Below the pieces are notes generated by a model. It made no database searches and was not told the origin of the DNA. It worked only from the letters and a program-made list of their open reading frames with translations. From Defluviicoccus sp. (lineage in GTDB: Bacteria; Pseudomonadota; Alphaproteobacteria; MPNO01), in NCBI GenBank assembly GCA_022823775.1, contig JAJEHI010000048.1:42267-106266 (forward strand): 64,000 bases of DNA, read 5' to 3'. Shown here piece after piece: positions 37,069-57,956 of the stretch (its first letter is position 1; the number at the start of each line of letters is the position of its first letter). The translations under genes and the position numbers were made by a program.

Positions 37069-37914
37069 TCAACGCTGCCGCGCGGCGCAATAGAAGGTCG
37101 AGCGTCCCGACTGCACGATCCGCCGCACCGCGCCGCCGCAATCGCAGCCCGGGCAGGGCTCGCCCTCGCGGCCGTAGACCTTGAACCGGTGCTGGAAATA
37201 GCCGAGCTCCCCATCGGGCGCGACATGGTCTCGGAGCGTCGAGCCGCCCGCGTCGATCGCCGAGGCGAGGGTCTCCCGGATGGCGCGGGCCAGCCGGCCG
37301 GCGCGCGCGGGCCCCACATTGGCGGCGAGGCGGCGGGGCGATATCCGGGATTCGAACAGGCTCTCGCAGACATAGATATTGCCGAGCCCGGCGACCACCC
37401 GCTGGTCGAGCAGAGCCGCCTTGATCGGGGTGCGCTTGCCCTCGAGCAGCGCCCGGAGCCGGTCCCCGTCGAATTCCGCGCCGGTGGGCTCGGGGCCGAG
37501 ATGCGCGATGAGCGGGTGGTCCGAAAGCCTGCCGTCCGCGATCCAGTCCATCATCCCGAAGCGCCTCGGATCGGCGAAACGGACGAACGTCCGGTTGCCC
37601 AGCACGAAGGTGACGTGCTCGTGGTTCGCGAGCGGGTGGGACGAAGCCCCGTCGGGGCCGTTCTCGTCCACGATCATGCGTCCCGACATGCCGAGATGGG
37701 CGAGCAGCACGCCGCCGTCGTCGAGGCCGATGGTCAGATATTTCGCCCGGCGGCCCACCGCGGTCACGGTCCGGCCGGTCAGGCGTTCCTCGAAATCCGG
37801 GGGCAGCGGGCGCCTGAGATCGCGACGCGCCACGCGCACGCCGTCGATGCGCCGACCCTCCATCGCGCGCGCGAGCCCGCGGCGGACGGTTTCGACCTCG
37901 GGAAGTTCGGGCAT
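37069..37914 (-). CDS. mutM: Formamidopyrimidine-DNA glycosylase
   Basis: [14 protein letters not shown] is the invariant N-terminus; the C-terminal zinc finger is CPGCDCGG...FYCAARQ. Confidence 0.9.
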
Positions 37915-37997
37915 GACGCAAACTAGCGCATTTTCATGCGAAGTCGAATGGCATCGCCGGGCGGGAACCGCGTTGGCGACCGGGCGCGCATGGGATT

Positions 37998-38771
37998 ATG
38001 GTCGACGCGATGGCGAAGAAACCCGGCACTGCGGAAGCGGGCGAGGCGCTGTTCGGATTCCGGAAGCTCGGCGCGGAAGAGCACGCCGAGCGGGTGCGCG
38101 GCGTCTTCGCCGCCGTCGCGCCGCGCTACGACCTGATGAACGACCTGATGAGCGGCGGCCTCCACCGGGTGTGGAAGGCGCTGATGATCGACTGGCTCGA
38201 TCCCCGACCTGGCTGGACGGTGATCGATATCGCGGGCGGCACGGGGGATGTCGCGCGCGGCATTCTCCGCCGCGCCGACGTCGAAATCGTCGTCTGCGAC
38301 CCGAGCGTCGAGATGCTGGAGGTCGGAATCGACCGGACGGTCGACAGCGGGCGGCTCTCCGGCATCCGGTTCGTCGCGGGCCGCGCCGAGGCGCTGCCTT
38401 TTCGGTCCGGTGGCGCGGATGCGTGCACCGTCGCCTTCGGTCTCCGGAACGTCACCGACCGGGCGGCCGCGCTCGGCGAGGCGCGGCGGGTCCTGAAGCC
38501 CGGCGGCCGGCTGCTGTGCCTCGAATTCAGCCGACCCGTCGCGGCGGCGTTGCGCCCGCTCTACGACGCCTATTCCTACGCGATCCTGCCCCGTCTCGGC
38601 GCCGCCGTGGCAGGCGATGCCGGCGCCTACCGCTATCTGGCCGACAGCATCCGGACCTTCCCCGACCAGGAAGCGCTTGCCGAGGAGTTTCGCGCCGCCG
38701 GCTTCGGGGCCGTTCGCTACCGTAATCTCAGTGCCGGCATCGCCGCCCTGCACTCCGCCTGGCGGACCTGA
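37998..38771 (+). CDS. ubiE: Ubiquinone/menaquinone biosynthesis C-methyltransferase
   Basis: The family motifs are YDLMNDLMSGGLHRVWK and the SAM-binding DIAGGTGD. Confidence 0.85.
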   Translation: MVDAMAKKPGTAEAGEALFGFRKLGAEEHAERVRGVFAAVAPRYDLMNDLMSGGLHRVWKALMIDWLDPRPGWTVIDIAGGTGDVARGILRRADVEIVVCDPSVEMLEVGIDRTVDSGRLSGIRFVAGRAEALPFRSGGADACTVAFGLRNVTDRAAALGEARRVLKPGGRLLCLEFSRPVAAALRPLYDAYSYAILPRLGAAVAGDAGAYRYLADSIRTFPDQEALAEEFRAAGFGAVRYRNLSAGIAALHSAWRT

Positions 38772-38774
38772 GCG

Positions 38775-40340
38775 ATGTTTCACGGTCTTCGAAACCTCCG
38801 GCGCATATGGCGCATCCTGCGCACGCTCGCCCGTCACGATGCGCTCTCGGCGTTCGAGCCGGTCAAGGCTCATGCGAGCCTCCGGATGGCGTTGTGGCTG
38901 CTCGGCAGGCCCCGGATCGACGGCGCGCGGTCGAGACGTCCCGGCGAGAGGCTGTCCGCGGCGTTTCAGGAGCTGGGACCGGCCTTCGTGAAGCTCGGCC
39001 AGGCGCTGTCGGTGCGTTCCGATCTGGTCGGCGAGGAGCTGGCGGCCGATCTCTCCCGTTTGCAGGACAGGTTGCCTCCGTTCCCGAGCGCGGAAGCGCG
39101 GAAGACCATCGAGGCCGAGCTCGGCTGCGGCCTAGACGAAGTGTTCGCCGGGTTCGACGACGAGGCCGTCGCCGCCGCCTCGATCGCCCAGGTGCATCGT
39201 GCCGTGACCGCCGACGGCGACGAAGTCGCGGTCAAGGTGCTGCGACCGGGGGTCGAAGCGGCGTTCAACCGCGATCTCGACCTCATCCGCTGGCTGGCGG
39301 GCATGGTCGCCCACCTGCGCGGCACCTTCGACCGGCTCAAGCCGGTGGAGGTGGTCGAGACCTTCGCGGAATCGGCGCGGATCGAGATGGATCTCCGCCT
39401 CGAAGCCGCGGCCGCGCAGGAGCTCCAGGCCAATTTCGAGGACATGGAGGGCTTCGAGGTGCCGACGGTCGACTGGCGGAGGACCGCACGCCGCGTGCTT
39501 ACCTCGAGCTGGGTCGAAGGCGTGCCGATCCACGACCGGGAAAGGCTGGAGGCCGAAGGGCACGATCTGGCGGAAATCGTGGCGCTGATGGCCTCGGTCT
39601 TCTTCTTCCAGATCTTCCGGGACGGTTTCTTCCATGCCGATCTCCACCCGGGAAACCTACTGGTCGACAGCGAGGGCCGGGTGCACGCGGTCGATTTCGG
39701 CATCATGGGGCGGGTCGACCGGCCGACCCGCCGCTACCTCGCGGACATGCTCTATTCGTTCCTCGTCCGGGACTACAACCGGGTTGCCGAAATCCATGTC
39801 TCGGCGGGGCTGGTGCCCGCCGATCAGTCTGTGGACGGTTTCGCCCAGGCGGCCCGCGCGATCGCCGAGCCAATCCTCGGCCTGCCGCTCAACCAGATCT
39901 CGCTGGCGCGGCTGGTGGGCCAGCTCTTCCAGGTCACCAAGCGCTTCAGGATGGAGGTGCAGCCCCAGCTCCTGCTGTTGCAAAAGACCATGCTGGTCGC
40001 CGAGGGGGTGGGCAGGCGGCTCCACCCCGAAACGAACATGTGGGAGCTCGCCCGTCCGTTGATCGAGGAATGGATGGCCGAGCAGATGGGGCCGCAGGCG
40101 CGCGTCCGCGAGACCGTGGAAACGCTGTCGGAGGCGCTTGCCCGGCTGCCCAAGGCGCTCGGAGACCTCGAACGGACGGTCGACGTGCTCGCCCAGAACC
40201 GCGTCCAGCTCGACCCGGATACGGTCGCCGCGCTCCGCTCCGAGATGGCGGGGCGCCGCGATGCGCGGGGGCTGTGGATCGCCATCGCCGCGCTCGCAGC
40301 CCTCGCGGCGGTCCTCGTCTGGACGCAGGCCGGAGGGTAG
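38775..40340 (+). CDS. ubiB: Ubiquinone biosynthesis protein kinase-like regulator UbiB (ABC1 family)
   Basis: 521 aa with the ABC1 kinase-like motifs AAASIAQVH, HADLHPGN, VDFG and a C-terminal TM segment. Confidence 0.85.
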   Translation: MFHGLRNLRRIWRILRTLARHDALSAFEPVKAHASLRMALWLLGRPRIDGARSRRPGERLSAAFQELGPAFVKLGQALSVRSDLVGEELAADLSRLQDRLPPFPSAEARKTIEAELGCGLDEVFAGFDDEAVAAASIAQVHRAVTADGDEVAVKVLRPGVEAAFNRDLDLIRWLAGMVAHLRGTFDRLKPVEVVETFAESARIEMDLRLEAAAAQELQANFEDMEGFEVPTVDWRRTARRVLTSSWVEGVPIHDRERLEAEGHDLAEIVALMASVFFFQIFRDGFFHADLHPGNLLVDSEGRVHAVDFGIMGRVDRPTRRYLADMLYSFLVRDYNRVAEIHVSAGLVPADQSVDGFAQAARAIAEPILGLPLNQISLARLVGQLFQVTKRFRMEVQPQLLLLQKTMLVAEGVGRRLHPETNMWELARPLIEEWMAEQMGPQARVRETVETLSEALARLPKALGDLERTVDVLAQNRVQLDPDTVAALRSEMAGRRDARGLWIAIAALAALAAVLVWTQAGG

Positions 40341-40513
40341 GCGGAGGACCCTGGGTTGCGACGCGCTCCGAGGCTGCGCGCGGCTGCCGCGCGCGTTCTC
40401 CTCACCGCTGCCCCCCGAACGAGTCGGGAGCTCCGGTCGAAACGCCCGACAGGTATAGGAAGAGACGCGATGGCTATGAAGATCGGTCGGCGCGATGCCG
40501 GAACGGCCCGCCC

Positions 40514-40852
40514 GTGATCCCCCGTATCAAGGCGTCGATCTGGGTGGCTGCGGAAATCCGGCGCTGCCGGGTGAACGGTATCGACGCCTATCTGGTGCGT
40601 CGGGGCGACGAGCATGCCGGCGCGATCCTGATCAAGCACAACCGGTTCGAGGCGGGCTGCACCGTCTATACGCCGGCCACCCCGCCCGACGGCGGCCGGG
40701 CGTGGCGCCGCGGCATCGGCGACGATCCGGTTCCGGAGGCCGAGGCCGACGCCTATATCGTTCGCCAGCGCGGCTACGATCCCGATCTATGGGTGCTGGA
40801 GATCGAGGACCCGCGCGGCATCTGGGCGCTCGCCGAGCCGGTGCTGTCGTAA
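40514..40852 (+). CDS. Conserved hypothetical protein, DUF1491-like
   Basis: It is the last 112 codons of the alternative-frame track ORF 38807..40852. GTG start, VIPRIKASIWVAAEIRRCRVNGIDAYLVRRGDEHAGAILIK. A conserved small protein in alphaproteobacterial ubiB-coaBC neighbourhoods. Confidence 0.5.
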   Translation: MIPRIKASIWVAAEIRRCRVNGIDAYLVRRGDEHAGAILIKHNRFEAGCTVYTPATPPDGGRAWRRGIGDDPVPEAEADAYIVRQRGYDPDLWVLEIEDPRGIWALAEPVLS

Positions 40853-41007
40853 GGCGGTGCCGTTTCGGCCGGCCGGCCGCCCACTCTCCCCCGGCCCTCC
40901 CGCAAGCGGGAGGGGAGAAGAGTCGGAGCGGTAAGCCCCCTCGCCGCCCAACCGATTTCTTCCGATTGCTTCCCCGGGGCGGGTATTATGGCGGGGTCGC
41001 TCGAACC

Positions 41008-42240
41008 ATGCGGAGCGGGGCCGTGCTGGACGGCAAGCGCATACTCCTGATCGTCGCGGGCGGGATCGCCGCCTACAAGACGCTCGAATTGACCCGCCGC
41101 CTCGTCGAGCGCGGCGCCCGGGTGCGTTGCGTGCTGACCGAGGCCGGAGCGGAGTTCGTCACCCCGCTGTCGCTGTCGGCGTTGAGCGGCGACAAGGTAT
41201 ACCGGGACCTGTTCTCGCTCACCGACGAGCACGAGATGGGGCACATCCGGCTCTCGCGCGAAGCCGACCTCGTCACGGTGGCCCCGGCGACGGCCGACAT
41301 GCTCGCGAAAATGGCGGGCGGGCTCGCCAACGACCTCGCGACCACGCTCCTGCTCGCGACCGACAAGGATGTACTCGCCGCGCCCGCCATGAACGTTCGG
41401 ATGTGGGAGCACGCGGCAACCCGCGCCAACGTCGCGCTCCTGCGCGAACGCGGCATCCGCTTCGTCGGACCGGACGAGGGGGAGATGGCCTGCGGCGAAT
41501 ACGGCCCCGGCCGTATGGCCGAGCCCGCCGCGATCCTCGACGCGATCGAGGCGTATTTCGCGTCGCGCGGCCGGCTGGAGGGGCGCGCCGCGCTGGTCAC
41601 CAGCGGGCCGACATACGAGGCGCTCGACCCGGTGCGCTTCCTCGGCAACCGCTCGTCCGGCAAGCAGGGCCACGCCATCGCCGCGGCGCTCGCCCGCGCC
41701 GGCGCGCGGACCCGCCTGGTGACCGGGCCGACCGGCGAGCCCGACCCGGCGGGGGTGGAGGTCGTCCGCGTCGAATCGGCGCGCGAGATGCTGGACGCCT
41801 GCCGCGCCGCCCCGCCAACCGATGTCGCGGTGTTCGCGGCCGCGGTATCGGACTGGCGCCCGGCCAGCGAGGCCGGGCGCAAGATCAAGAAATCGGACGG
41901 CGCGCCCAAGCCGATCGAGCTGGTCGAGAACCCGGACGTGCTGGCCTCGGTCGCCGCCGCCGGCAACGCCCGGCCGGCGCTCGTCGTGGGCTTCGCCGCC
42001 GAGACCGACGACCTCCTCGGCAACGCGCGGCGGAAGCTGGAGGCCAAGGGCTGCGACTGGATCCTCGCCAACGACGTCGCGCCGGGATCGGGGACGTTCG
42101 GCGGCGAGGCGAACACGATTCGCCTGGTGAGCGCCGATGGGGTCGAGGACTGGCCCACCCTCGCCAAGGGCGCCGTCGCCGAGAGGCTGGCGGCCAGGAT
42201 CGCCGACTGGTTTGACGCCCGCGCCGAGGCGGCCGAATGA
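41008..42240 (+). CDS. coaBC: Bifunctional phosphopantothenoylcysteine decarboxylase / phosphopantothenate-cysteine ligase
   Basis: Real start [24 protein letters not shown] at 41008; the track ORF 40495.. has a 171-aa read-through. It contains both the flavoprotein and CoaB domains. Confidence 0.9.
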
Positions 42241-42698
42241 GCGATGTCGCGGTCGCGGTGACCCGGCTTCCGGGAAACGACGACATCGCGTTGCCCCGCT
42301 ACGAGACCGAGCAGTCCGCCGGGCTCGACCTCGCCGCGGCGGTGCCGGCCGCGGTGATGCTGGCGCCGGGCGGGCGGGCGACGATTCCCACCGGTCTCGC
42401 GATCGCCCTGCCGCCGGGCTACGAGGCGCAGATCCGCCCGCGCTCCGGGCTCGCCGCGCGGCGCGGAGTCACGGTGCTGAACGCGCCCGGCACGATCGAC
42501 GCGGATTACCGGGGCGAGATCAAGGTGGTGCTCGCCAATATGGGCGCCGAGCCGTTCGCGGTGGAGCGTGGCATGCGCATCGCCCAGATGGTTGTCGCGC
42601 CGGTGACGCGGGTCGCCTGGAACGAGGTTGGGGCGCTGCCGGAGAGCGCCCGCGGCGGCGGCGGGTTCGGCTCGACCGGCACCGGGCCGGCCGGCTGA
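42237..42698 (+). CDS. dut: dUTP diphosphatase
   Basis: 153 aa. Motifs SAGLDL, RSGLA and [10 protein letters not shown]; its start overlaps the coaBC stop (ATGA). Confidence 0.9.
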
Positions 42699-42721
42699 GC
42701 GCGGCCGCGGGCGCCTCGAAG

Positions 42722-43480
42722 ATGCTGACCGAAGACCAGCTGCACCGCTACGCGCGGCACATCGTCCTTCCCGAGGTTGGAGGCGTCGGCCAGGAAAAGC
42801 TGCTGCAATCCCGCGTGCTCGTGGTCGGCGCGGGCGGGCTCGGCGCGCCGCTGCTCCTTTATCTCGCCGCGGCCGGGGTCGGCACCATCGGGGTGGTCGA
42901 CGACGACGCGGTCGACCTTTCCAACCTGCAGCGTCAGGTGATCCATGCCACCGACCGGATCGGCATGCCCAAGGTCGACAGCGCGGCCGAGGCGGTCGCG
43001 GCGGTCAACCCTGGAGTCCGGCTGGTGACGCACCCGACGAGGCTCGATGCCGGTAACGCCGCCGGGCTGATCGCCGGTTACGATGTGATCGCCGACGGCA
43101 GCGACAATTTCGAGACCCGCTTCACGCTCAACGACGCCTGCCACGCGGCCGGCAAGACCCTCGTCGCCGCCGCCCTGCTGCGCTTCGAAGGGCAGCTCGC
43201 CACCTTCAAGTCGGGGCTCGACCCGGCCCTGCCGTGTTATCGCTGCCTCTACCCGTCGCCTCCGCCGCCCGGGGTCGTCCCCAGCTGCGCCGAAGGCGGC
43301 GTGCTCGGCGCGCTCGCCGGCACGATGGGCTCGCTGCAGGCGACCGAGATCCTCAAGGAGGCGATGGGGATCGGCGAAAGCCTCGCCGGCCACCTCCTGA
43401 TCTACGATGCGCTGACCACGACGGTCCGCAAGATGGCGCTCAAGCGCAACCCGCGCTGCGCGACCTGCGGCGATGGCTAA
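42722..43480 (+). CDS. moeB: Molybdopterin-synthase adenylyltransferase (MoeB/ThiF/HesA family)
   Basis: Real start MLTEDQLHRYARHIVLPEVG (the track ORF 42137.. reads through). Motifs VVGAGGLG and CxxC...CxxC. Confidence 0.8.
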   Translation: MLTEDQLHRYARHIVLPEVGGVGQEKLLQSRVLVVGAGGLGAPLLLYLAAAGVGTIGVVDDDAVDLSNLQRQVIHATDRIGMPKVDSAAEAVAAVNPGVRLVTHPTRLDAGNAAGLIAGYDVIADGSDNFETRFTLNDACHAAGKTLVAAALLRFEGQLATFKSGLDPALPCYRCLYPSPPPPGVVPSCAEGGVLGALAGTMGSLQATEILKEAMGIGESLAGHLLIYDALTTTVRKMALKRNPRCATCGDG

Positions 43481-43856
43481 GCTCGCGATAATCGTGCAGT
43501 CGGGCGCTTTCGACCGGGTGCATTACGCGCTGGTGATGGCGAGCGCGGCGGCTGCGATCGACCGGGAGGTGACGCTGTTCTTCACCATGGAGGGCTGCCG
43601 CGCGCTGCGTCCCGCCCAGGCGCTGGGAGACTGGGCGGCGCCGGAGCGAGGGTTGCGCGAGAAGGGGCTCGCCACGCTCGAGGAGCTTCTCGCGGCGGCC
43701 GCCGAACTCGACGTGCGCTTCACGGTCTGCGAGCTCGGACTCCGGGCCGTCGGGCTCGCGCTCGAGGATCTCCGCGACGATCTCGGCATCCGCGAGACCG
43801 GCGCGGTCACCTTCCTCAACGACGCCGGGCCCGACGCTCAGATGGTGTTCGTTTAG
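43473..43856 (+). CDS. DsrE/DsrF/TusD-like small protein
   Basis: 127 aa; MAKLAIIVQSGAFDRVHYAL is DsrE-family-like. It overlaps the moeB stop. Confidence 0.5.
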   Translation: MAKLAIIVQSGAFDRVHYALVMASAAAAIDREVTLFFTMEGCRALRPAQALGDWAAPERGLREKGLATLEELLAAAAELDVRFTVCELGLRAVGLALEDLRDDLGIRETGAVTFLNDAGPDAQMVFV

Positions 43857-43890
43857 GGCGGTCGTCCGCGCCCGGGACCGCCCGGCCGGT
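43856..43890 (+). terminator. GC-rich hairpin after the DsrE-like gene (putative terminator, no U-tract)
   Basis: GGGCGGTC-gtccgcgcccg-GACCGCCC has perfect 8-bp arms immediately after the stop codon. An AT-rich non-coding region follows. Confidence 0.3.
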
Positions 43891-44019
43891 CCGCCCCAAA
43901 CACTGCTTCGGGGGATCGAGGGCAACTCAATCACAAATTGTTTATCAAGTGAAACGTGCAGTCTAGCTGTAATACTGATACCGTTCACGCAGATTTGATG
44001 GCACTGAGATGATATAAGC

Positions 44020-44039
44020 CCATCTCATTATTGAGATGG
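44020..44039. promoter_or_regulatory. Perfect palindrome CCATCTCA-TTAT-TGAGATGG in an AT-rich intergenic region; candidate LysR-type (ATC-N10-GAT) operator
   Basis: Seen directly about 45 bp upstream of the LysR ATG. The 43.90-44.08 kb interval is strongly AT-rich compared with the rest of the window, and TGAGATG recurs at 44005. Confidence 0.35.
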
Positions 44040-44081
44040 AAAGCAGTAATACTTTTGAATATTTCATCTCTAAGAGTGCCT

Positions 44082-44996
44082 ATGGTTGGTCGCTCCCGAG
44101 TACGCATCCCGGCGGTAAGCACTCTGATCGCGTTCGAGAGTGCCGGCCGGCTCGGCAACTTTTCTCGTGCGGCCGAAGAGTTGCAGACTTCCCAGTCCGC
44201 GATCAGCCGCCACATCGCGAAACTTGAGGAACAGCTTTCGACACGGGTGTTCCATCGGTCCCGGACCGGCGTAAGCCTGACCGAGACGGGAAGCGACCTT
44301 TACGACGCCGTGGCGGCCGGGCTCAAGACGATCGACAGCGCCATCGTCAGGGCCGGAGAGGCGTGCGACGAAGAGCACCTGTCGATCGCGTGTTCGCACG
44401 ACGCTTGGCAGTTCGTGTTCATGCCCCGGCTCGATGCGCTCCAGGAGTTTGTCGGCGAGAATTTCCCGATCCGTTTCACGCTTTACCCTCAGGACTCCCG
44501 GCATGTACCGCTGGATCCGGATGCCGACGTGGTATTCACCTGGGACGCGAGCGGCGCCGGTCCGGACACGCTGACAATCCCGGAAGCCGTCAGACCGGTC
44601 TGCTCGCCCCGATACGCGGAGGCCAACCCGGAAGTATTCGAAGGGCCGGCCGGCGGATGGAGCGGATTGACCCTGCTCGACTTCTCGATCCCGGACGGGG
44701 GTTGGGCATCCTGGGCGGACTGGTTCGGGATCGCCGGACGACCCGATCCCATGCCCCGCATCGTGGATCTCGACAGCTATGGCGATATCTTGCGAGCGGT
44801 GGCCGTCGGCAAAGGCGTGGCGCTCGGTTGGCGCTACTGCGTCGAACGATATATCGAAGCGGGTGCGTTGGTCCCGCTGGGCGATGACTTTATCGAATTC
44901 GACAATTTCTTTTGCGGATTGCTGACCGAGAAGGGACGAAAAAGGCCGGCCGCGCGCAGCTGTCTCGGTTTCATCGACGCGGCCATCGGGACCTGA
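44082..44996 (+). CDS. LysR-family transcriptional regulator
   Basis: N-terminal HTH LIAFESAGRLGNFSRAAEELQTSQSAISRHIAKLEEQL and a C-terminal substrate-binding domain. 304 aa. Confidence 0.8.
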   Translation: MVGRSRVRIPAVSTLIAFESAGRLGNFSRAAEELQTSQSAISRHIAKLEEQLSTRVFHRSRTGVSLTETGSDLYDAVAAGLKTIDSAIVRAGEACDEEHLSIACSHDAWQFVFMPRLDALQEFVGENFPIRFTLYPQDSRHVPLDPDADVVFTWDASGAGPDTLTIPEAVRPVCSPRYAEANPEVFEGPAGGWSGLTLLDFSIPDGGWASWADWFGIAGRPDPMPRIVDLDSYGDILRAVAVGKGVALGWRYCVERYIEAGALVPLGDDFIEFDNFFCGLLTEKGRKRPAARSCLGFIDAAIGT

Positions 44997-45026
44997 GCGC
45001 GAACCGGGCGTCCGCCCGCCGGGGGA

Positions 45027-46649
45027 TCAGTAAATCCGGCGGATCGTCCTCAGCTGTCTCGCAATATCCGAAAACGCCGCCCGGAGCGTTTCGGGGTCCC
45101 GGTTTTCCAGGAAAACGTATGTTCCATCCGGTTTTTCCGCCTCGCTGGAGCACGCGCGCAGCGCCGTTCCCAGGGTCCCGGATACATTGTCCGGATGCAT
45201 CGCCGCGATGACGAAGATCTCGGTCCCGGCGGCCTTCGCGGCGTTACACGCCACGGCGCGATCGATGCCGACATCGTTGGTCTCGCAAGCCGGATCGTTA
45301 AGCCCGCACGGGTTGTCCTCTCCGTCCGTAAGCAGCACGATCGCTTTTCGGGTACCGGCGTTGCCCGAAGCGTCGGTGTCTACCGGATGGACGCCGCCGC
45401 CCCATGCATCCGTCCAGGAATGCGACAGCAGCCTTTGCCCCCACAGGACCCCGAGCGTGGAATAGGTCCGGAATCCCACCGGCGCGAGCGAGTCGATCGC
45501 CGCGCGGACCGCCGCGGCGTCGGATGTCAGCGGCAGAATGGATGGAATGACGGTGCCGTCATACGGCGATGTGCAGCCTCTCTGGGCGGACGTGCGGTCG
45601 TAGACCCCCCGCAGGTCGGCGGGGTCGTCGCCGTAACAGACCTGGTAGTTGAAGTTGTCGGGCAGCGGCGACTGCAGGCACTCGTACGCCACCCCCTGTA
45701 CCGACGGGAAGATCGCTTGAGCGAAAGGGTGCGACGACGGGGGGGCGAGCAAATCGGAGACGGCGGGCAGGGACGCATGATCCCCCGGCCCGGAGATCCG
45801 ATGCTCGTCCAGGCAGCCCTGCCAGGTCTCGTCGAATGTGGGCGGGAGCGTGTGGTCGACATCGAAAGCCGTGCAATTGCCCTCCGGTCGGCACGCGTAG
45901 GAGGCGGCATAGTTGCGGCTTTGCGGGTATTTCGCCCAACCGTCGGCTGCCCAGCCGGCCTGCATCGTTGCCGGCAGCCGGACCAGGATGTGCCACGGCA
46001 CCAGCCCCACCGCCACCCGGCTTTCTTCGCGCGGATCGAGAATGTCGACCAGGTCGAGGGCTGCCTGCCTTACGATATTCATCCGGCTGGGATCCTCGCC
46101 CCAGGCCGGAGAGCCATCCAGCCCGTCCCGCATCGACGCGCTGATGTCGATGGCAAGCACCACCTCGACGGCGTTCCTGACACTCTCCACCGCGCTCTCC
46201 CGCGCCACCGGACCCGGTCCGGAATAGCCGAACAGCCGTTCGGATATCGCCGTCCGCCCGATATCCGCCTGGACCGACGCGCCGACCGTTCCCGCCGTCC
46301 GGTCGATATCCAGCGTCACCGAGATATCCCCGGCCTCCAGATCGGGGTCGTTCGTGTTTCCCAGGACGTTCAGAACGGCATATTTTCGCGCGACGGCCAT
46401 AAGCCGTTCCTCCACGTCGCCGTCGGACATGGAGCTCGGCAACCCGCTCAGTTCCAGCGTCGCGGACATCGACACGGCGTCGGCCGCGCTCTTCAGGAGA
46501 TCGCGCCGATCGACGAGCCGATCATGATCGACGATCACGGCCGCGCCGCCCACCGTCATGATGACGACCCCGATGGCGACATAAGCGGTCGCCGCGGCGC
46601 GCCTGTTGCGAAGAAAGCGGCGAACGGGGCGGGTCGAATTCCGGAACAT
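45027..46649 (-). CDS. tadG: TadG-like Flp-pilus assembly protein with von Willebrand factor A domain
   Basis: The N-terminal Tad-like membrane anchor is RRAAATAYVAIGVVIMTVGGAAVIV and the vWA region is VVLAIDISASM...IVLLTDGEDN. Confidence 0.7.
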   Translation of the reverse strand: MFRNSTRPVRRFLRNRRAAATAYVAIGVVIMTVGGAAVIVDHDRLVDRRDLLKSAADAVSMSATLELSGLPSSMSDGDVEERLMAVARKYAVLNVLGNTNDPDLEAGDISVTLDIDRTAGTVGASVQADIGRTAISERLFGYSGPGPVARESAVESVRNAVEVVLAIDISASMRDGLDGSPAWGEDPSRMNIVRQAALDLVDILDPREESRVAVGLVPWHILVRLPATMQAGWAADGWAKYPQSRNYAASYACRPEGNCTAFDVDHTLPPTFDETWQGCLDEHRISGPGDHASLPAVSDLLAPPSSHPFAQAIFPSVQGVAYECLQSPLPDNFNYQVCYGDDPADLRGVYDRTSAQRGCTSPYDGTVIPSILPLTSDAAAVRAAIDSLAPVGFRTYSTLGVLWGQRLLSHSWTDAWGGGVHPVDTDASGNAGTRKAIVLLTDGEDNPCGLNDPACETNDVGIDRAVACNAAKAAGTEIFVIAAMHPDNVSGTLGTALRACSSEAEKPDGTYVFLENRDPETLRAAFSDIARQLRTIRRIY

Positions 46650-46837: not shown

Positions 46838-48952
46838 TCAATAGTAGTAGCCGCCAACCAGCGCCGGGGCGGGTTCGTCCCGCTCTTCCGGAGACCCGCC
46901 GGTCCGGACCAGCCGGGCCGTGACGATCACCACCAGCTCGAGGTCCTCCGATCGTATCGAGCGATGCCCGAACAGCGGTCCCAGCAACGGGATGTCCTTG
47001 AACACCGGGAGGCCCGCCTCCCGCGTGTCGGACGCGTTGCGGAACAGCCCGCCTATCACGATCGAGTCTCCGTCGCCCACTTCGACCGTCGTCTCCGCGC
47101 GGCGCACGTTGATCACCGGGATATTGACGCCCACCACCTGGACCGCCTGGTTCAGCGACGGCTCCGACACTTCGGGCCTGACCTTCAGCACGATCCTGCC
47201 GGCGTCTATGACCGTGGGGACGAAGTCGAGCAGGACGCCGTATTTCTTGTATTCGAACAGGATGACCCCGTCCTCGAACCCGGTCGGCAGCGGGTATTCG
47301 CCACCCGAGAAGAACGACGCCGCCTCGCCCGACACGGCGGTGAGGTTGGGCCTGGCCAGCACGTTCGCCGAGCCGGCCCTGGCAAGCGCGTCGATCATGC
47401 CCGAGATGCGCGTGTCCTTCGTATGCCTGCCGAAGAAGAGACCGGGGGAGGGCTGACCGTCGACGAGTGACGGAGCGAAGGCGCCGATCGCGCTTCCCGC
47501 GACCGACGGGACGCTCGCCAGCCGGCCGATCCGGAAGCCGAACACGTTGTCGCCCGGGGTCCGGAATGCCTCCCAATTGATCCCGAGGTCCTCGCTGAGC
47601 GAGCGCTGGACCTCGGCGATCTGGACTTCAAGGCTCACCTGCTGCGCGCCGGCCACACGCAGTTCGGTTTCGACGACGGTGTCCTTCGGCAGAGCCGCCG
47701 CCGCGAGCCGGAGGGCGCGTTCGGCGAGAGCGGCGGAGGCGACATCGCCCGACAGCGCTATTCCCCGCGCGACCCGCCTCGCCCGTACGCCGCGCAGATC
47801 GGGCTCTCCGGCCAGGTTCGCACGAACGGGTTCGAGGTCGAGCATGACGGACACGATCCAGTCCCGCACCCGACCGTCCTCTCCGAGCACCGCGACGGAG
47901 GTTCTGCCGACGCTCTTGCCGACGATGTACAGCACGTCGGGCGATAGCAGCTGAACGTCCGCCACCTCGGGCGCCGCCACCAGCAGCGAGGTCGCGCTGG
48001 AATCGAGCCCGAGGCGCCTGCTCTGCCCCAGCGAAAGGGTCATCGTCGCCGGCAGGGGGACGCCCGGCGTTCGGTCCGCGGCCGCCTCCGCCTCCGGGAC
48101 CGGCGGCGCCTCCCGCTCCGTTCCGGGACCCTGCGGGGAGGGCCGTTCCGCAATGCGAAGCAGGGCGCCCGTGGACCCCGGCAGCGCCGCTTCGCGGGCC
48201 GCGGGGCCGTCCCCTTCCCGCGCCGGCAGACGCATCGCGAGGCTCGGATGGACCGCACGCGCCGCGGCCTGGCGCCGCCGCTCCCGCCGCGCTTCCTCGA
48301 TCAGATGCCACAGCGAAGAACCGTCCTCGCCCAGCCAGAAGGACGGATCGTGCCGCGCGTGAACCTCCGCCGCGCTCTCTTCCTTCCCGGCCGCCAGCAG
48401 CATGCGCACGAAATTCGCGGTGATCCCCGGATGGCCCGAAGACAGGCGGAGAGCCCGGCGGTATTCCGCCTCGGCCGTCTCGTAATCGCCTTCGAGGCTG
48501 GCGAGGACGCCGATGCCGTTGGCGACCCAGGCCGCCGAGGGCCCCCGTCCCGCCGATTCGCGCGCGCTCCCGAAGTGCCGCCGCGCGTCGTCCAGCGTGC
48601 CTTGGGCGAGCGCCGTCCGCCCCGCGCCGAGGAGCGCTTCCGCCTTGATGGCCGGCGCCTCCTCCGCCAGCGCCGCGGCCCCGAGGAAATAGTCCTTCGC
48701 GGCCGGCAGGTCGTTGTCGAGGGACGCGATATATGCCAGCCCGAGGAGCGGTTCGGGAGCCTCGTCGAAGCGTTCGGCCAGGGAGCGGTATAGCCTGCGG
48801 GCGACCGACGGCTGGCCCGCGGTAAAGGCGGCGGCCGCGACGGACAGGTTGTTTTCAAGAAGATCCTGGCGGCCGGCGGGATCGTCCGACGACGGGCCGG
48901 TCGCGCATGAGGCGACCGCCGCGACCGAGATGAAAACGGCAGCGGCGCGCAT
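46838..48952 (-). CDS. cpaC: CpaC/RcpA-type secretin fused to an N-terminal TadD-like TPR domain; lipoprotein signal
   Basis: Real start MRAAAVFISVAAVASC at 48952. The first ~270 aa are TPR-like. These are followed by the pilus-formation N-domain (LSLGQSRRLGLDSS...VLYIVGKSVGRTSV) and the secretin core (ARPNLTAVSGEAASFFSGGEYP...FKDIPLLGPLFG). Confidence 0.75.
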   Translation of the reverse strand: MRAAAVFISVAAVASCATGPSSDDPAGRQDLLENNLSVAAAAFTAGQPSVARRLYRSLAERFDEAPEPLLGLAYIASLDNDLPAAKDYFLGAAALAEEAPAIKAEALLGAGRTALAQGTLDDARRHFGSARESAGRGPSAAWVANGIGVLASLEGDYETAEAEYRRALRLSSGHPGITANFVRMLLAAGKEESAAEVHARHDPSFWLGEDGSSLWHLIEEARRERRRQAAARAVHPSLAMRLPAREGDGPAAREAALPGSTGALLRIAERPSPQGPGTEREAPPVPEAEAAADRTPGVPLPATMTLSLGQSRRLGLDSSATSLLVAAPEVADVQLLSPDVLYIVGKSVGRTSVAVLGEDGRVRDWIVSVMLDLEPVRANLAGEPDLRGVRARRVARGIALSGDVASAALAERALRLAAAALPKDTVVETELRVAGAQQVSLEVQIAEVQRSLSEDLGINWEAFRTPGDNVFGFRIGRLASVPSVAGSAIGAFAPSLVDGQPSPGLFFGRHTKDTRISGMIDALARAGSANVLARPNLTAVSGEAASFFSGGEYPLPTGFEDGVILFEYKKYGVLLDFVPTVIDAGRIVLKVRPEVSEPSLNQAVQVVGVNIPVINVRRAETTVEVGDGDSIVIGGLFRNASDTREAGLPVFKDIPLLGPLFGHRSIRSEDLELVVIVTARLVRTGGSPEERDEPAPALVGGYYY

Positions 48953-49254
48953 GCGCCGGACGAGATGTCGACATGGTTGCCGGATCACGAGCATTTCCAA
49001 TCCGGCCCCGTTGTCAGCGAACGAAGCACGACCGCTCCATCTTCCGTCAAGATTTCGAACCCGGGCGAAGAATGAACGCGGTTCCCGAATTCGATCCTAT
49101 CGATCCAGAGACCGCGAACCTGGGTGTATCCCCGCGATCCGGACGCTCGATCCGGCACCGCCGCAACCGGCGAACCCATAAGCGAACTTGGCAGAATATG
49201 CCTAACACGATATGAATTGTGAACAGAAGTGAGATATTTTGTCGCCCTCGCCCC

Positions 49255-49788: not shown

Positions 49789-50919
49789 ATGGCGGCGTCT
49801 TCCAAGGCTCACTATGCGCGCGGGTTCGCGGCCGACGCCCGGACCGAGCGGGCATTGCGCGCCGGACTTGCCGGCCGCGACGCGAAGGTCCAGCGAGGAC
49901 GCCTGGAAATCGCGCTCCGCACTCTGGCGGCCGAGCCCGCCTCCAGTCTGGTGTTCGTCGACCTCGACGGCAATTCGGACCCGGAAACCGCGGCCAGGCG
50001 ACTGACCGAAGTTTGCCCTTTCGAGACTGCGGTGGTCGCGATCGGTTCCACCGATTCGGCGCGGTTCGGCCACGCGCTCCTGCAACAGGGGATGGCGGAC
50101 TATCTGGTCAAGCCGCTGTCGGCCGCGGTCGTGCGCGAGGCGGTCGCCGCCCTCAGCGGGGAGGCGCCCGAGCATCTCTACGCGGGAGACGTCATCGCTT
50201 TCGCGGGAAGCCCCGGCAGCGGCGTCTCCACCCTGGTCGCCGCGGTCGCGCACGCCGCCGCCGCCGACGGCCGCACCGCTTCCGTCGTCGACCTCGACCC
50301 GGTTTGCGGCAAGCTCTCCGCGCGGCTCGGCGTCGAACCCGGGGACGGCCTGCGCCCGCTCCTTGCTTCGATCGGCGCCGGCGCGGCCGATGACCCGGAC
50401 CCTCATATCGACCCCGACAGGATCGACCGAATATCGACGCCGGCGGCTTCCGGCATTTCGCTGATCGCTTACCCGAAGGCCGAGGCGCCGCCGGAAAGCG
50501 CCGACGCGGCGGCGCTCTCCGCCCTCTTCAGGCATCTCGCCAACCGGACCCATCTCGTGCTGGCGACCGGGATGCCGGATCCCGAGACGCAGCTTCTGCT
50601 GATGCGGGACGCCGATGCTCGGGTTCTGGTCTACGAACCGACGATAGCGAGCGTCGGCGCCGTGGTGCGTCGGTTGGCGCGGCTCGGCCCCGACCGGCCC
50701 GCCACGCTGGTCCAGTGCTCCACGCGGGGTCGCCGTTACACGCTGTCCTCCGCCCATGTCCGCTACGCGTTCGGCGACCGGCGCCCGGACGTCGTGCTTC
50801 CCTTCGATCCGGCGCTCCACGCGGCCGCCACCGGCAAGCCATCGGGCCGCCCGGGAAAGGCCTACCGCAAGGCGCTGCGCCAGGCGATAGAGCTGGTCGG
50901 ACAAGATCATCGTTCGTGA
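49789..50919 (+). CDS. cpaE: CpaE/TadZ-family pilus assembly protein (receiver-like N-domain + MinD/ParA-like domain), paralogue 1
   Basis: The receiver-like part is LVFVDLDG...ADYLVKPL. The deviant Walker A, IAFAGSPGSGVSTLVAA, lacks the conserved lysines. Confidence 0.7.
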   Translation: MAASSKAHYARGFAADARTERALRAGLAGRDAKVQRGRLEIALRTLAAEPASSLVFVDLDGNSDPETAARRLTEVCPFETAVVAIGSTDSARFGHALLQQGMADYLVKPLSAAVVREAVAALSGEAPEHLYAGDVIAFAGSPGSGVSTLVAAVAHAAAADGRTASVVDLDPVCGKLSARLGVEPGDGLRPLLASIGAGAADDPDPHIDPDRIDRISTPAASGISLIAYPKAEAPPESADAAALSALFRHLANRTHLVLATGMPDPETQLLLMRDADARVLVYEPTIASVGAVVRRLARLGPDRPATLVQCSTRGRRYTLSSAHVRYAFGDRRPDVVLPFDPALHAAATGKPSGRPGKAYRKALRQAIELVGQDHRS

Positions 50920-51265
50920 CCGCGAAGGCCGCATTTCACGCGTCGGGAAGAGTCGGAACTCCGATTTTCCCGGTCTTGGGAGCGGGCATTGCGCGTCGTG
51001 CGTCAATCCGCCGCAACGGCGGTCGTAGACGGGAGTCGGCGGTCGGGCAAAGATAAGCTCCATTAACGGTTTAGGCGGGGTGAGGGCGGTTTCGCTTATC
51101 GCCCTCCAGCTTGCGGCGAACCGTCCCGACGCGCCGATTTCGCGCTCCGCAACGCAAAATATCGTTGACGCTTTTCGCCCCGGCGAATAGATGACCGCAC
51201 CGATATGGCGGCATGACCCGGATGAGATCGATATCGATCCGCGCGGGGGCCGCTGCATCGTCCGC

Positions 51266-51306: not shown

Positions 51307-51849
51307 ATGCGGAGCGGGTGCGTGAACCGGATCGTCAGACATGGCTGGCTTGCAGCGCGGGACTTCTGGCGCGCCCGGCGCGCGGCGGTCGCGCTGGAAA
51401 CGGCGATCGCGGTGCCGGTTCTCCTCTTCGCGTTCGCGGGCCTGATGGAAATCGTGCACTCGGCCTATGTCAGCGACAACATGAACCGCGCCGCCCGCGC
51501 CGCCGCCCGAGCGATCGCGATCGCGCCGGACAGCGCGGCGGGTAGCGGCGCGCTCGACAGCGTCGCCTGCACGGCGATCCGGCGCGAACTCAAGCTGGTC
51601 GAGAGTTTCGACTGCGGCGCGAGCTGGACGCTCACGGTCGACACGGATCTCACTCCCGCCGCCTTGCTGGCCGGCGGAGACGGGGGCGACGGCGAGGCGG
51701 ACGGGGACATGGTGGTCGTGCGGATCGCCTGGAGCCGGGAGCCCTGGGAGATCGGCCAGCTCATCGCCTCGCTCGACGAGGGAGACGGCGAGCCCGACCG
51801 CCGGATCGCGGTCGGCGTCGCCCGCCGGGAACCGGTGGCGGGGAGCTGA
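51307..51849 (+). CDS. tadE: TadE/TadF-like pseudopilin-type protein
   Basis: The N-terminal TadE motif is AAVALETAIAVPVLLFAFAGLMEI; 180 aa. Confidence 0.65.
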   Translation: MRSGCVNRIVRHGWLAARDFWRARRAAVALETAIAVPVLLFAFAGLMEIVHSAYVSDNMNRAARAAARAIAIAPDSAAGSGALDSVACTAIRRELKLVESFDCGASWTLTVDTDLTPAALLAGGDGGDGEADGDMVVVRIAWSREPWEIGQLIASLDEGDGEPDRRIAVGVARREPVAGS

Positions 51850-51856
51850 TCCGCCC

Positions 51857-52528
51857 GTGACCGCGCTCCCGTCCCTCCCGCTCCGGTCCTTCGTCCGCGA
51901 CACGCGCGCCCTGGCCGGTATCGAGCTCGCGTTCGGATCCGTGGCGCTCGCGACGATCGCCACGCTGTGCTTCGACCTCTACTCGCTGGTCGGCGTCACC
52001 AGCGCCAGCGCGCGTAGCGCCGTCGCCATGGCGGAGTACGTTTCGCGCGACAGCGCCCCGGACGGGGATCAGGTGACGGCGCTGGGCCGGTTCCTGCACC
52101 GGGAGGAGTTCGGCGCCCCCGCCGATCTGGTCTACGTGATCTCCGCCGTCCGGCGTCCGCCGGGGGACGAGCCCGCGGAAGTCCTGTGGGTCGACGACAC
52201 GATCCGGTTCGGCGACTCCGCGACGACGGCGGCCCTCGCCGGCGAGTGCGCCCGCCGCGGCAGCGCGGGCTGGCGGGCCGGGCTGCTTGGCGCGCCGGGC
52301 TCCCTCGGCATGAGCGAGGGGGAGGTGGCGATCGTGGCCGAGGTCTGCGCGCGTCCCATGCGCGAGGGCATGCTTTCCGGCCGCCTGGTCACCGGAGACA
52401 TCTACCGCGTTCATATCCTGCCGTCCCGCGATCCCCGGCAGGCGCCAGAGCCGCCAGTCCATTCGACCTCGGCGGAGGACACGGACAGGACGGGCGCCGG
52501 TCCGCCGCACAAGGTTTCGATTTCATGA
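51857..52528 (+). CDS. tadF: TadE/TadF-like protein (second copy)
   Basis: GTG start; N-terminal LAGIELAFGSVALATIATLCFDLYS; 223 aa. Confidence 0.6.
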   Translation: MTALPSLPLRSFVRDTRALAGIELAFGSVALATIATLCFDLYSLVGVTSASARSAVAMAEYVSRDSAPDGDQVTALGRFLHREEFGAPADLVYVISAVRRPPGDEPAEVLWVDDTIRFGDSATTAALAGECARRGSAGWRAGLLGAPGSLGMSEGEVAIVAEVCARPMREGMLSGRLVTGDIYRVHILPSRDPRQAPEPPVHSTSAEDTDRTGAGPPHKVSIS

Positions 52529-52682
52529 TCGCCGGGGCCGACGGCAACGGCGATTCCGCTCACGATCGATAACGCAACGGGAGAACCGAGACATCGAGTA
52601 GACCGACCAGATAGTTGCCGATGCAACCAAGCCGGCACGGTGCGCCGGCGACCGTTTTTACCGACCCAGAAGGGATTCCAAA

Positions 52683-52922
52683 ATGAATACTCGATTTGCA
52701 ACCCGCCTGTTCAGGCGCTTCGCGCGCGACAACAAGGCCGTCTCCGCCCTCGAATACGCCATCCTGGTGGGTGTCATCACCGCCGGCGTCGGCGCAGCCG
52801 TCGCGGCGTTCACGGACCAGATCGACGACATGATCGATCAAATCGCCACCAACGTGACCGCCAACGAGGCCAACATCGGCACCGGTGGCGCCGGCGGTGG
52901 CGGCGGCGACGCCGCCGAGTGA
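52683..52922 (+). CDS. flp: Flp/Fap-family type IVb pilin
   Basis: 79 aa. The Flp motif ...DNKAVSALEYAILVGVITAGVGAAV has G/A before the EY; the C-terminus is a Gly-rich acidic tail TGGAGGGGGDAAE. Confidence 0.75.
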   Translation: MNTRFATRLFRRFARDNKAVSALEYAILVGVITAGVGAAVAAFTDQIDDMIDQIATNVTANEANIGTGGAGGGGGDAAE

Positions 52923-53110
52923 TCGATACCGCCTGGAGCGCCGGTCGCCGTGCCCTCGGGGCGGCGGCCGGCGCGGCTGTCCCGCTACCGTAACGGACAT
53001 GGCCGCCCCCGGCTCCGGGCGGCCGTTTCCGGCATCCGGCGGGCCTGACCGCGGGTCCTCCGGATTTTCGGGGCCGCGGCCGAACCGGTTCCTTTCCGAA
53101 AAAGCCCACA

Positions 53111-54612
53111 ATGACTCTCGACGCTTCTCCGAACGGCCGCGATCGTCCGGCCGGGCCTCCCCCGGAACGCGCGCCCGACTTCGACCTCGATTTCGACGTC
53201 GATTTCGAGGCCCTGCTGCGGGCCGGGCTTCCGGACGATCCGGGCGAGGGCGAGGACGCCACCGCCGCCGACCTGGCGAGCGCTCTCTCCGCCGGCCCCT
53301 TGGACGATCCATCTCCGCCGCCGGCCGATCCGGACCTGCCCGACCTCGCGGACCTTTCCGGCATCGCGGCGGACCTGCCGGGTCCGGGCGCCGCGATCGA
53401 CGCCGGCAGCGATGAGGACGCGGACGACACGGCTTCCGAGTCGACGCCCGAAGGTCCCGCCGCCGCGCTCGCCTTCGCGGCCGATGCGGAGACCGAGAAC
53501 GCCCTGCGCGAGGGTCTGATGCATTTCGAAGGGGCGATGCCGGACTGCGACGATCCCCAGGTTTGGCCGGGCGGCCTGCGAGCGGCCGTCGCGGCGCTCG
53601 CCGACGGGCATTCCTCCGGTCTCGTCATCGTCGATATCGACGGTATCGCCTACCCGTCGGGCGCCATTCACGAGCTTGCCGAGGTCTGCGAGATCGGAAC
53701 CGTCGTCATCGCGGTCGGCTCGAACGGCACCGCCCGTTTCAGCCGCGAAATATTGCTTGCCGGGGTCAGCGACTATCTGGTGAAGCCGCTCACCCCGCAG
53801 ACGGTGAGGGAGGCGACACGCCGCGCGGCCGCGTCCCGGGCGGACGCCCCCGCGAGGGGATGCGTCGCCGGGTTCGCCGGCACCGGCGGCAGCGGCGCGA
53901 CCACCCTGGCGGTGGCGACCGCGCTCCATGCGGCGGAGACCGGCCGTTACGTTTCTGTGCTCGATCTGAACCGGACCGTCCCCGTCGCGGCGCTTCTGCT
54001 CGACGTGCAGCCGGCGGCCGGGCTGGAACAGGTCATCGAGGTCGCCGGCGACGCGCCGCTCGAGGCAAACACGCTGGACGGCGTCCGGGCGCAGCGCTCC
54101 GAGCGGGTATCGATCTACGCCTATCGCTGGTCTCCCGTGCTGCCCCCGGCGCCGTCGGGCCCGGCGCTCGCCCGCCTGCTGGGCGAACTGAAGAGCCGGT
54201 CCCAGCTCGTGCTCGTCGACGGGATCGACGATCCGCCGACCCAATTCGCCCTGCTGTCCGAGGTCGATGTCCCCGTTCTGGTGGCGGAACCGACGGCGGA
54301 CGGCGCAACCCGCGCGGCCCGTATGCTGGAGCTTCTCCCCGGCGACGCCCCGGCCGTCGCGGTGAAGAACCACACGCGCGCGTTCCGGCCGGACGCGGGG
54401 GCGCGGGCGCTCGTCGACGCCGGGATGGAGGCCGCGCCGGACATCCTGGTTCTGTACCTTCCGTCGCTGCCGGAAATCGCCGACCGGGGCTGGCCGCGCG
54501 GCAGGCTTCCCCGCCGCTTGCGCAAGCCCGTCGCGAGCCTTCTCGAACGGATCCTCGCATCGGCCCGCCTCGCCCGTGTCGTCCCGGACGGGCGCCTCGC
54601 GGAGGCGGCGTG

Positions 54613-54613: not shown

Positions 54614-56006
<1,393 letters not shown>

Positions 56007-56010
<4 letters not shown>

Positions 56011-56966: not shown

Positions 56967-56983
56967 GGAAGGGCGGGCCTCTC

Positions 56984-57955: not shown

Positions 57956-57956
57956 G

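Follow-up and report, generated by a model that had tools for sequence, protein, structure and literature searches.

A probable LysR promoter/operator region at the left end of a LysR–Tad gene unit in Defluviicoccus sp.

The window analysed here is a 64-kb stretch (64,000 nucleotides) of contig JAJEHI010000048.1 from Defluviicoccus sp., in which a block of housekeeping genes (37069–43856) is separated from the genes of a Tad pilus locus (45027 to beyond 62745), as a sequence-only reading of the window had stated, by an AT-rich stretch in front of a gene for a LysR-type transcriptional regulator (LTTR; the gene and its product are called LysR below; 44082–44996, + strand, 304 aa). On balance, the sequence evidence favours this stretch as the promoter/operator region of the LysR gene, with an autoregulatory operator in the leader, target operators of the same kind at Tad promoters, and a position at the left end of a relocatable LysR–Tad module. 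In the mechanism proposed, LysR would bind a pentamer array on one helix face, between a predicted −10 (43968–43975) and the start codon, leading to autoregulation; it would also bind an array of nearly the same sequence a little downstream of the −10 of the tadE-flp-cpaF operon (51202–51228) and a weaker array over the −10 in the divergent region between orf174 and the secretin gene (49209–49235), and expression of the Tad pilus would thereby be coupled to a small-molecule effector. Because the sites sit over or just downstream of predicted −10 boxes, repression that is relieved or remodelled by the effector is suggested. Choline-O-sulfate, glycine betaine, carnitine, and taurine are candidate effectors, pointed to solely by a distant resemblance within the family and by the BCCT/sarcosine-oxidase neighbourhoods of some homologues. 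We infer LysR as the binding protein, the transcription start sites, which are predicted near 43981 for LysR and near 51199 for tadE, and the sign of regulation; autoregulation is near-universal among LTTRs.

The conserved leader and its 27-bp element

The GC content of the 182 bp at 43900–44081 is 40.7%, against an average of 68.5% (sd 4.6) for 180-bp windows across the 64 kb; those below 50% GC form a single cluster (43871–44172, minimum 39.4%), and the AT-rich interval that the sequence-only reading had noticed in a GC-rich background is indeed the lowest region of the 64 kb. A sliding-window scan found no switch of GC skew at this stretch.

A leader of ~190 bp, AT-rich (36–39% GC) and built from shared blocks, precedes every close LysR homologue (66–99% amino-acid identity, found in metagenome-assembled genomes [MAGs] labelled Alphaproteobacteria or Defluviicoccus). 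These homologues, whose loci are designated here by L numbers, occupy at least four gene contexts: dsrE-LysR-MFS (L006, L008, L091, and L095–98, where the mutM…thiF-dsrE block and LysR are followed by MFS, DHO-dehydrogenase and ClpS genes, without Tad); DUF1330-LysR-ABC or IS110 (L003/L021, L088, and L005/L010, where an ABC operon or IS110 element comes after BCCT…DUF1330-LysR); DUF1330-LysR-Tad (L090 and L093); and X-LysR-Tad (L007 and L087, with other upstream genes). The shared leader blocks are CAATCACAAATTGTTTAC, TATAAT(AC), GATAT-N6-ATMTC-N6-GAGAT, AATTAATACTTTTGAATATTT, and GTGTGCCYATGG. Because they recur in all contexts, those lacking Tad included, the AT-rich stretch is best regarded as the LysR gene's own 5′ region and not as a scar.

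Similarity among LysR loci of unrelated contexts begins at a weakly conserved block at 43890–43925 (CYCAACCGTTCGTCCG in relatives, degenerate in the window; this and all following leader features are given on the + strand). Next comes the nearly invariant block 2, CAATCACAAATTGTTTATCA at 43929–43948 (CAATCACAAATTGTTTAC in relatives), which was found upstream of this LysR clade only and which, at about −52 to −33 of the predicted promoter, may be a UP-like element or an activator site; inspected by eye, it does not fit an IHF or CRP site. The predicted −10 of the LysR promoter is TGTAATAC at 43968–43975 (TATAATAC in most relatives).

The predicted LysR operator is the tripartite element GATAT-AAGCCC-ATCTC-ATTATT-GAGAT (44011–44037, 27 bp), whose pentamers (GATAT at 44011–44015, ATCTC at 44022–44026, and GAGAT at 44033–44037) lie 11 bp apart in alternating orientation. 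Its spacing is fixed in the aligned leaders, with the exception of L010, where the second spacer is 1 nt shorter. The consensus GATAT-N6-ATMTC-N6-GAGAT holds the cores of both arms of a perfect palindrome, CCATCTCA-TTAT-TGAGATGG (44020–44039; 8-bp perfect arms and a 4-nt loop, centred 52 bp from the LysR ATG), which the sequence-only reading had reported and which is exact at this position; it consists of pentamers 2 and 3 with lineage-specific extensions. As a palindrome it is not conserved, the left arm being degenerate in L006, L007, L008, and L009 and the loop varying from 3 to 5 nt. The earlier proposal of a LysR operator is therefore retained in that a conserved operator-like element is present, but it has to be moved from the perfect palindrome to the 27-bp tripartite element, which is the conserved unit.

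The repetition of TGAGATG upstream of LysR, also pointed out earlier, is borne out by three copies in the whole window (both strands), all inside 44005–44038. The extra copy at 44005–44011, 71–77 bp upstream of the LysR ATG, is specific to the window's lineage; together with CATCTCA (44021–44027) it forms TGAGATG-N9-CATCTCA, which includes a T-N11-A, in that lineage only, and an additional CATCTC lies at 44065–44070. A search of the 64 kb for the exact palindrome and for TGAGATG gave no further copies. Block 7, GCAGTAATACTTTTGAATATTTCATCTC (44044–44070), has an invariant TTGAAT.TT core and spans the expected place of a fourth pentamer, which is degenerate and GAATT-like; its 3′ part is complementary to 44006–44016 in the window. 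AAGAG at 44072–44076 forms a weak Shine-Dalgarno sequence for LysR, and the ATG at 44082 is taken as the start codon because variation among homologues is synonymous from that ATG onward.

The word is also enriched beyond the close relatives: 24 of the 80 members of the wider LysR family, from several phyla, have an exact GATAT-N6-AT in the 150 bp before the gene, and the control rate is 0.7% of windows or 6.8% of AT-rich windows.

Within the window, the element recurs at Tad promoters. The 15 pentamer positions of eight leaders, the window's not among them, were turned into a position weight matrix, which was scanned over both strands of the 64 kb. Its top two scores were 27.8 at 44011 and 22.7 at 51202; behind these came 51191 with 15.8, on the minus strand and overlapping the second of the two, and 49209 with 15.7. 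The maxima of 200 shuffles that preserved local composition had a mean of 14.3 and were all below 22. The second site, GATATGGCGGCATGACCCGGATGAGAT (51202–51228, + strand), is a predicted LysR target operator that begins 9 bp after the −10 of a putative sigma-70-type promoter, GTTGAC-N17-ATAGAT (51164–51192, + strand), which lies upstream of the tadE-like operon and is conserved in seven loci. The weaker match, GATATGAATTGTGAACAGAAGTGAGAT (49209–49235, + strand), is conserved in L007, L090, and L093 and overlaps the −10 of a promoter-like sequence, CTTGGC-N17-ATATGA, of the orf174-orf376 unit in the secretin/orf174 divergent region (49187–49235, + strand). In L007, L090, and L093 the best matrix match downstream of LysR falls at the orthologous tadE-promoter position, and in L046, whose Tad locus stands beside a 48%-identical LysR paralogue, the tadE-promoter match is second best; the loci lacking Tad have no comparable second site, bar one match in coding DNA (L021/L088).

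An AT-rich patch with palindrome-like TTAAC..GTTAA words lies at 51048–51075, ~120 bp upstream of the tadE promoter; its counterpart at L090:15030–15060 is a perfect GATAAC-GA-GTTATC, its position is conserved across Tad loci, and it may be the site of a second regulator.

LysR, its family and the Tad locus

LysR carries HTH_1 (PF00126; residues 15–70, 66.8 bits against a cut-off of 26.6) and LysR_substrate (PF03466; residues 98–298, 33.3 bits against 28) domains. Its best NCBIfam matches are to the choline-sulfate regulator model TIGR03418 (151.7, cut-off 324.8) and the GcvA model PRK11139 (108.5 bits, cut-off 288); by these scores it is related to the GcvA and choline-sulfate regulators and lies outside both equivalog families. 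Its closest solved full-length relative is GcvA (PDB 8y6u, residues 8–277, E = 7.6e-12).

LysR lies convergent to a TadG-like gene in the window and in L002, L007, L087, L090, L093, L046, L062, L065, L066, and L099. A search of the metagenomes of the JGI from the Tad side recovered one such locus, L099; two further TadG-like homologues were uninformative, one (L100) being a paralogue from the opposite end of a Tad locus and one (L101) lying in a rearranged region with integrases and an unrelated LTTR. Relative to the window, L007, L090, and L093 have LysR proteins 68–72% identical and Tad proteins 65–78% identical, and the L046 group has 47–49% and 50–60%, respectively. In L006, L008, and L095, by comparison, the housekeeping proteins are 84–95% identical to those of the window and the LysR at the same site is 68–69% identical; the LysR proteins of L006, L008, and L009 are mutually 89–97% identical. 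In sequence, LysR divergence tracks that of the Tad proteins and not that of the housekeeping flank, and for this reason the window's LysR+Tad looks like a unit that took the place of the LysR found in its nearest relatives or that diverged independently of it. Nucleotide identity to L006/L008 is ~90% up to 43839, 55–78% over 43840–44079, 90–98% in the part of LysR that encodes the helix-turn-helix (HTH), ~73% in the remainder of LysR, and random after 44998, and the left edge of the LysR–Tad unit is placed at ~43.86–43.90 kb. The earlier suggestion that LysR may regulate the pilus genes gains indirect support from the element at tadE (51202), the weaker one at secretin/orf174 (49209), the adjacency of LysR and Tad, and their co-divergence.

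Further features were noted around the LysR unit in several relatives. At L009:5879–9850, two tandem copies (~1.97 kb) of an IS5-like insertion sequence (IS; DUF772 + DDE_Tnp_1 transposase) stand between dsrE and LysR, inserted inside a conserved leader block between CAATCACAAATTG and TTTAC with an apparent CAAATTG duplication, and in L011 an identical IS end lies beside TGTTTAC; IS elements seem to target the AT-rich leader. In L003 (9002–9634 and 11054–11953), and likewise in L088, LysR has a branched-chain ABC permease (BPD_transp_2) on both sides, once as a 210-aa fragment and once as a full 299-aa copy, which hints at insertion of the LysR unit into, or its recombination beside, an ABC operon. 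In L002:1579–4807, a contig from a second sample, LysR and its leader are identical to those of the window, the TadG-like gene is cut to 150 aa and the secretin to 521 aa, and a 284-aa open reading frame (ORF) without Pfam matches lies between the two; either the Tad locus of a conspecific population has been disrupted or the assemblies differ.

The wider LysR family (41–71% identity, ~304 aa) occurs in MAGs labelled Alphaproteobacteria, Vicinamibacterales, Longimicrobiales, Rhodothermales, Gemmatimonadota, and Gammaproteobacteria, with as many as four copies on a single contig (CAXXVU020000002.1); the names of some isolates (RHO*_bin, SB0661, and Plut, for example) suggest an origin in sponge or coral metagenomes. 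The HTH is nearly invariant across the family. Clustering of neighbouring genes showed that subfamilies occupy different conserved contexts, so the family as a whole is not Tad-specific. One alphaproteobacterial subfamily, the ~50%-identical L027–L070 group, has its own conserved neighbourhood, in which a 3-hydroxyacyl-CoA-dehydrogenase-like gene, an SDR, a CobW-like GTPase, an MFS transporter, and a possible DUF488 protein were named from sequence; its leaders are also AT-rich (38–46% GC), with other sequence blocks. HTH-only LysR paralogues (~100 aa, HTH_1 alone) were seen between a full-length LysR paralogue and a TadG-like gene at L046:11143–11448 (− strand) and L099:7984–8905; in the L046 paralogue, GATAT-N6-AT overlaps a perfect TTGACA-N17-TAATAT promoter. 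Such paralogues may compete for the operator.

The genes around the leader are as follows. The upstream block runs mutM-ubiE-ubiB-DUF1491-coaBC-dut-thiF/moeB-dsrE (37069–43856), and directly 3′ of the stop of the DsrE-like gene, which ends at 43856, a GC-rich inverted repeat, GGGCGGTC-N12-GACCGCCC (43856–43883, + strand), closes the block sharing ~90% identity with the closest relatives; this repeat may serve dsrE as a hairpin terminator, though it lacks a T-run. A sub-threshold Rfam match to the Guanidine-II riboswitch (19.6 bits against 32, E = 0.53) at 43270–43319 (− strand), inside the thiF/moeB coding region, is almost certainly a chance hit. Downstream, convergent with LysR, lie the gene for a TadG-like VWA protein of 540 aa (45027–46649, − strand) and that for a TPR-secretin (RcpA/CpaC-like; 46838–49000, − strand). 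Divergent from the latter is the orf174-orf376 unit (+ strand), and the presumed regulated operon (51307–57955, + strand) starts with the tadE-like gene (51307/51322–51849) and continues with orf223 (between tadE-like gene and flp), the flp pilin gene (52683–52922), orf500 (53111–54613), the cpaF ATPase gene (54613–56010), and tadB/tadC (56010–56900 and 56897–57955). Membership in the Tad/Flp class is indicated by above-cut-off matches to TadE, T2SSE, T2SSF (two), Secretin + T2SS-T3SS_pil_N, and Peptidase_A24; the Flp_Fap match of the Flp pilin is below its cut-off (21.8 against 32.2).

orf376 (49789–50919) and orf500 are paralogues (34–35% identity by tblastn) without Pfam matches and may encode divergent CpaE/TadZ-like proteins; one homologue of the pair has a faint MeaB match. 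Three further genes lie in the Tad locus between tadC and the prepilin peptidase gene (57945–62177), for a di-haem cytochrome c peroxidase, a DAHL-domain histidine kinase, and a Cache-domain protein; no response regulator was seen. The kinase-Cache-peptidase order is found in L100 as well.

Objections and alternative explanations

Several points weigh against reading the element as a LysR operator shared with Tad promoters. The predicted LysR −10 is good in relatives and TGTAAT in the window, and no canonical −35 is found 16–18 bp from it; a consensus promoter scan of 43700–45200 found none, and a canonical sigma-70 promoter for LysR was rejected for want of a positive scan and of an assignable −35 for the conserved TATAAT block. 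The match at 49209 scores just 15.7, and 0.4 matches of at least 15 are expected per shuffle. The tadE sites of different loci are not independent because they are orthologous, and L066 and L099, the Tad loci farthest from the window's, have only a weak form of the element. Part of the family-wide enrichment could be that of a shared promoter, because GATAT overlaps an extended −10 (TGGTATGAT) in some members. The conserved dyad GATAT-N6-ATMTC and the palindrome (T-N12-A) both lack the classical LTTR box T-N11-A. There is no divergent target gene, the dsrE-like gene being co-directional, and no divergent neighbour is conserved across contexts. The family is not exclusively dedicated to Tad, since close homologues occur without nearby Tad genes (L006, L008, and L021). 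Another regulator could, finally, recognise the motif.

Other assignments of leader sequences were tried and set aside. Sigma-54 readings (TGGCAC at 44000; CTTGGCAGAATATGC at 49187) fail by eye on spacing or conservation, and a leaderless LysR mRNA is rejected, no −10 lying at a suitable distance from the ATG. The leader holds short ORFs only (for example MKYSKV, minus strand), which are not conserved across lineages. A scan for intrinsic terminators gave none in the intergenic region, its lone match (44141–44157) lying inside the LysR coding sequence, and the palindrome is no candidate for one, as it is AT-rich and without a T-run.

The last of the objections can be developed into an alternative in which the motif is bound by another protein, such as a MucR/H-NS-like silencer of AT-rich DNA or another regulator of the Tad locus, and LysR is merely co-regulated with the pili. 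The extreme AT-richness of the leader for this genome, the misfit to T-N11-A, the presence in the Tad locus of the DAHL-domain histidine kinase and Cache-domain protein, and the indirect assignment of the site to LysR all speak for it. The motif is, however, enriched upstream of LysR-family genes across phyla and in contexts without Tad, a distribution predicted by autoregulation and not by a Tad-specific regulator, and plain AT-richness does not explain the tadE site, because GATATGGCGGCATGACCCGGATGAGAT lies in GC-rich DNA. We regard binding by another protein as unlikely.

Decidedly unlikely, too, is that the AT-rich stretch is an island junction without regulatory role, that is, an att site, an insertion scar, or the edge of foreign DNA left by insertion of Tad after dsrE. 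This alternative draws on the drop in identity to the closest relatives at 43840–44079, on the IS insertion in the L009 leader, and on a synteny comparison in which LysR+Tad did not appear as a core feature of this position: the mutM…dsrE block lacks Tad in L006, L008, and L095–98, and LysR+Tad stands elsewhere in L007, L087, L090, and L093. Yet the AT-rich sequence is conserved block by block with LysR in every context, with or without Tad. No tRNA was found in the 64-kb window, no integrase among the genes scanned (40495–63944), and no direct repeats bracketing the AT-rich region in a short-range search, the far end of the Tad locus lying beyond the window; a tRNA- or integrase-type island was rejected on the first two counts. 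The Tad genes are, moreover, of ordinary composition (66–73% GC, with GC at third codon positions [GC3] of 0.80–0.90, similar to the rest of the window), and the deviant parts are only the leader (41% GC) and LysR itself (61% GC, GC3 0.76, against ~0.88 in the neighbouring housekeeping genes). What remains of the island junction put forward by the sequence-only reading is the break in conservation with the closest relatives at the left edge of the stretch; the AT-rich DNA itself appears to be a conserved 5′ region that moves with LysR and no junction or att scar.

A structured 5′ leader RNA, in which the palindrome forms a hairpin and an outer stem (44000–44016/44060–44080) sequesters the ribosome-binding site and controls LysR translation, is improbable. 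The putative leader of the window folds to −32.5 kcal/mol (z = −2.7, equalled by just 3 of 200 shuffles), its outer stem covers AAGAG and abuts the AUG, and the leaders of L010 and L087 fold well too (z −5.0 and −2.6, respectively). Half of the leaders, on the other hand, fold no better than shuffles; across 11 non-redundant leaders RNAalifold returned zero consensus pairs, and the hairpin showed 0 compensatory pairs and 74% paired cells against a column-shuffle mean of 77%. Long stems are absent or in different registers in other lineages, no Rfam match to the leader exceeded chance, and the element is present at the tadE promoter region too, outside any LysR leader. An RNA leader or riboswitch was accordingly rejected as a family-wide explanation, there being no Rfam match, consensus structure, or covariation, and is kept as a possibility specific to the window.

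A chance origin of the palindrome and repeats, from the low complexity of AT-rich intergenic DNA, is very improbable: a palindrome arm of at least 8 bp arose in 2.4%, and a 7-mer present at least three times in 3.8%, of 5000 dinucleotide-preserving shuffles of the AT-rich 182 bp, and the perfect palindrome is not conserved, but the two features occurred jointly in 0.2% of shuffles, which makes them moderately non-random on their own, and the pentamers are conserved across lineages and recur at Tad promoters.

Significance and comparison with known systems

If the operator reading is true, it provides a testable link, involving one protein, three operator sites, and two promoters, from metabolite sensing to adhesion pili in uncultured, probably host-associated bacteria. 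The window's most conspicuous compositional anomaly would then be explained as a functional gene-control region and not as foreign DNA: the AT-rich trough sits at a synteny break, yet it would be a conserved control region and not an insertion scar. A broader picture can be offered only tentatively, namely that of a relocatable LysR–Tad colonisation module in host-associated Defluviicoccus-like Alphaproteobacteria, in which a GcvA-like LTTR with an OxyR-style operator of GAKAT pentamers spanning several grooves couples a possibly host-derived small molecule to Flp/Tad pili; the LTTR family and its operator word would have spread and multiplied across several MAG phyla (Vicinamibacterales, Longimicrobiales, and Rhodothermales included), and the HTH-only paralogues by some Tad loci may compete for the operator.

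Tad/Flp regulation is known in only a few model bacteria, via systems such as CtrA and PprB, and literature searches pairing LysR with the tad locus, the tad operon or sponge symbionts turned up no account of a LysR-type protein that regulates a Tad locus. The window encodes a Flp-like pilin, a TadE-like pseudopilin, CpaF/TadA, TadB/C, a secretin, a TadG-like VWA protein, and a prepilin peptidase, as does the Tad/Flp "widespread colonization island" (Tomich, Planet and Figurski, 2007, as cited in PMC9873259 and PMC5234846), and resembles it further in that presence and position vary among close relatives. It differs in having a LysR-family gene attached at one end, convergent with the TadG-like gene, and in that the window revealed neither a tRNA nor an integrase nor flanking repeats.

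Among LTTRs linked to pili, CrgA of Neisseria meningitidis reportedly controls pilus and capsule genes on host contact. PDB 3hhg ("Transcriptional regulator, LysR family"), which we take to be CrgA, is a distant sequence relative of the window LysR (E = 7e-9). The resemblance is one of role only, an LTTR linked to pilus expression; the pili concerned are type IVa and not Tad/Flp, the lineage is unrelated, and the operator is different. With GcvA, LysR shares a full-length alignment (to 8y6u) and the subfamily match of 108 bits; unlike GcvA, it scores far below the 288-bit cut-off, no CTAAT-type sites are visible in its leader, and its context is unrelated to gcv genes. The extended operator of OxyR reportedly consists of four ATAG-type half-sites in adjacent major grooves (Toledano et al., 1994). 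The array described here is alike in its alternating half-sites at ~11-bp intervals and in an extended site of at least 40 bp; it is unlike in its half-site and in having three pentamers clearly conserved and a fourth degenerate, and the window LysR is not an OxyR.

LTTR control regions generally comprise recognition and activation sites with an "LTTR box", T-N11-A, and usually a divergent target gene. The region described here departs from that pattern in having no divergent target and no T-N11-A core in the conserved dyad, in sites that lie downstream of or over the predicted −10 and not at −65/−35, and in an unusually long (~190 bp) and AT-rich leader. It agrees with LTTR autoregulatory regions in presenting a conserved array of dyad-related half-sites before the gene, in the presence of the motif at presumed target promoters, and in half-sites set roughly one helical turn apart, the spacing expected of a tetramer that contacts one major groove after the next. 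As a control region it is an element of an ordinary kind; the addition open to testing is a conserved operator word common to the LysR leader and the Tad promoters, in a LysR–Tad module that shifts position among relatives.

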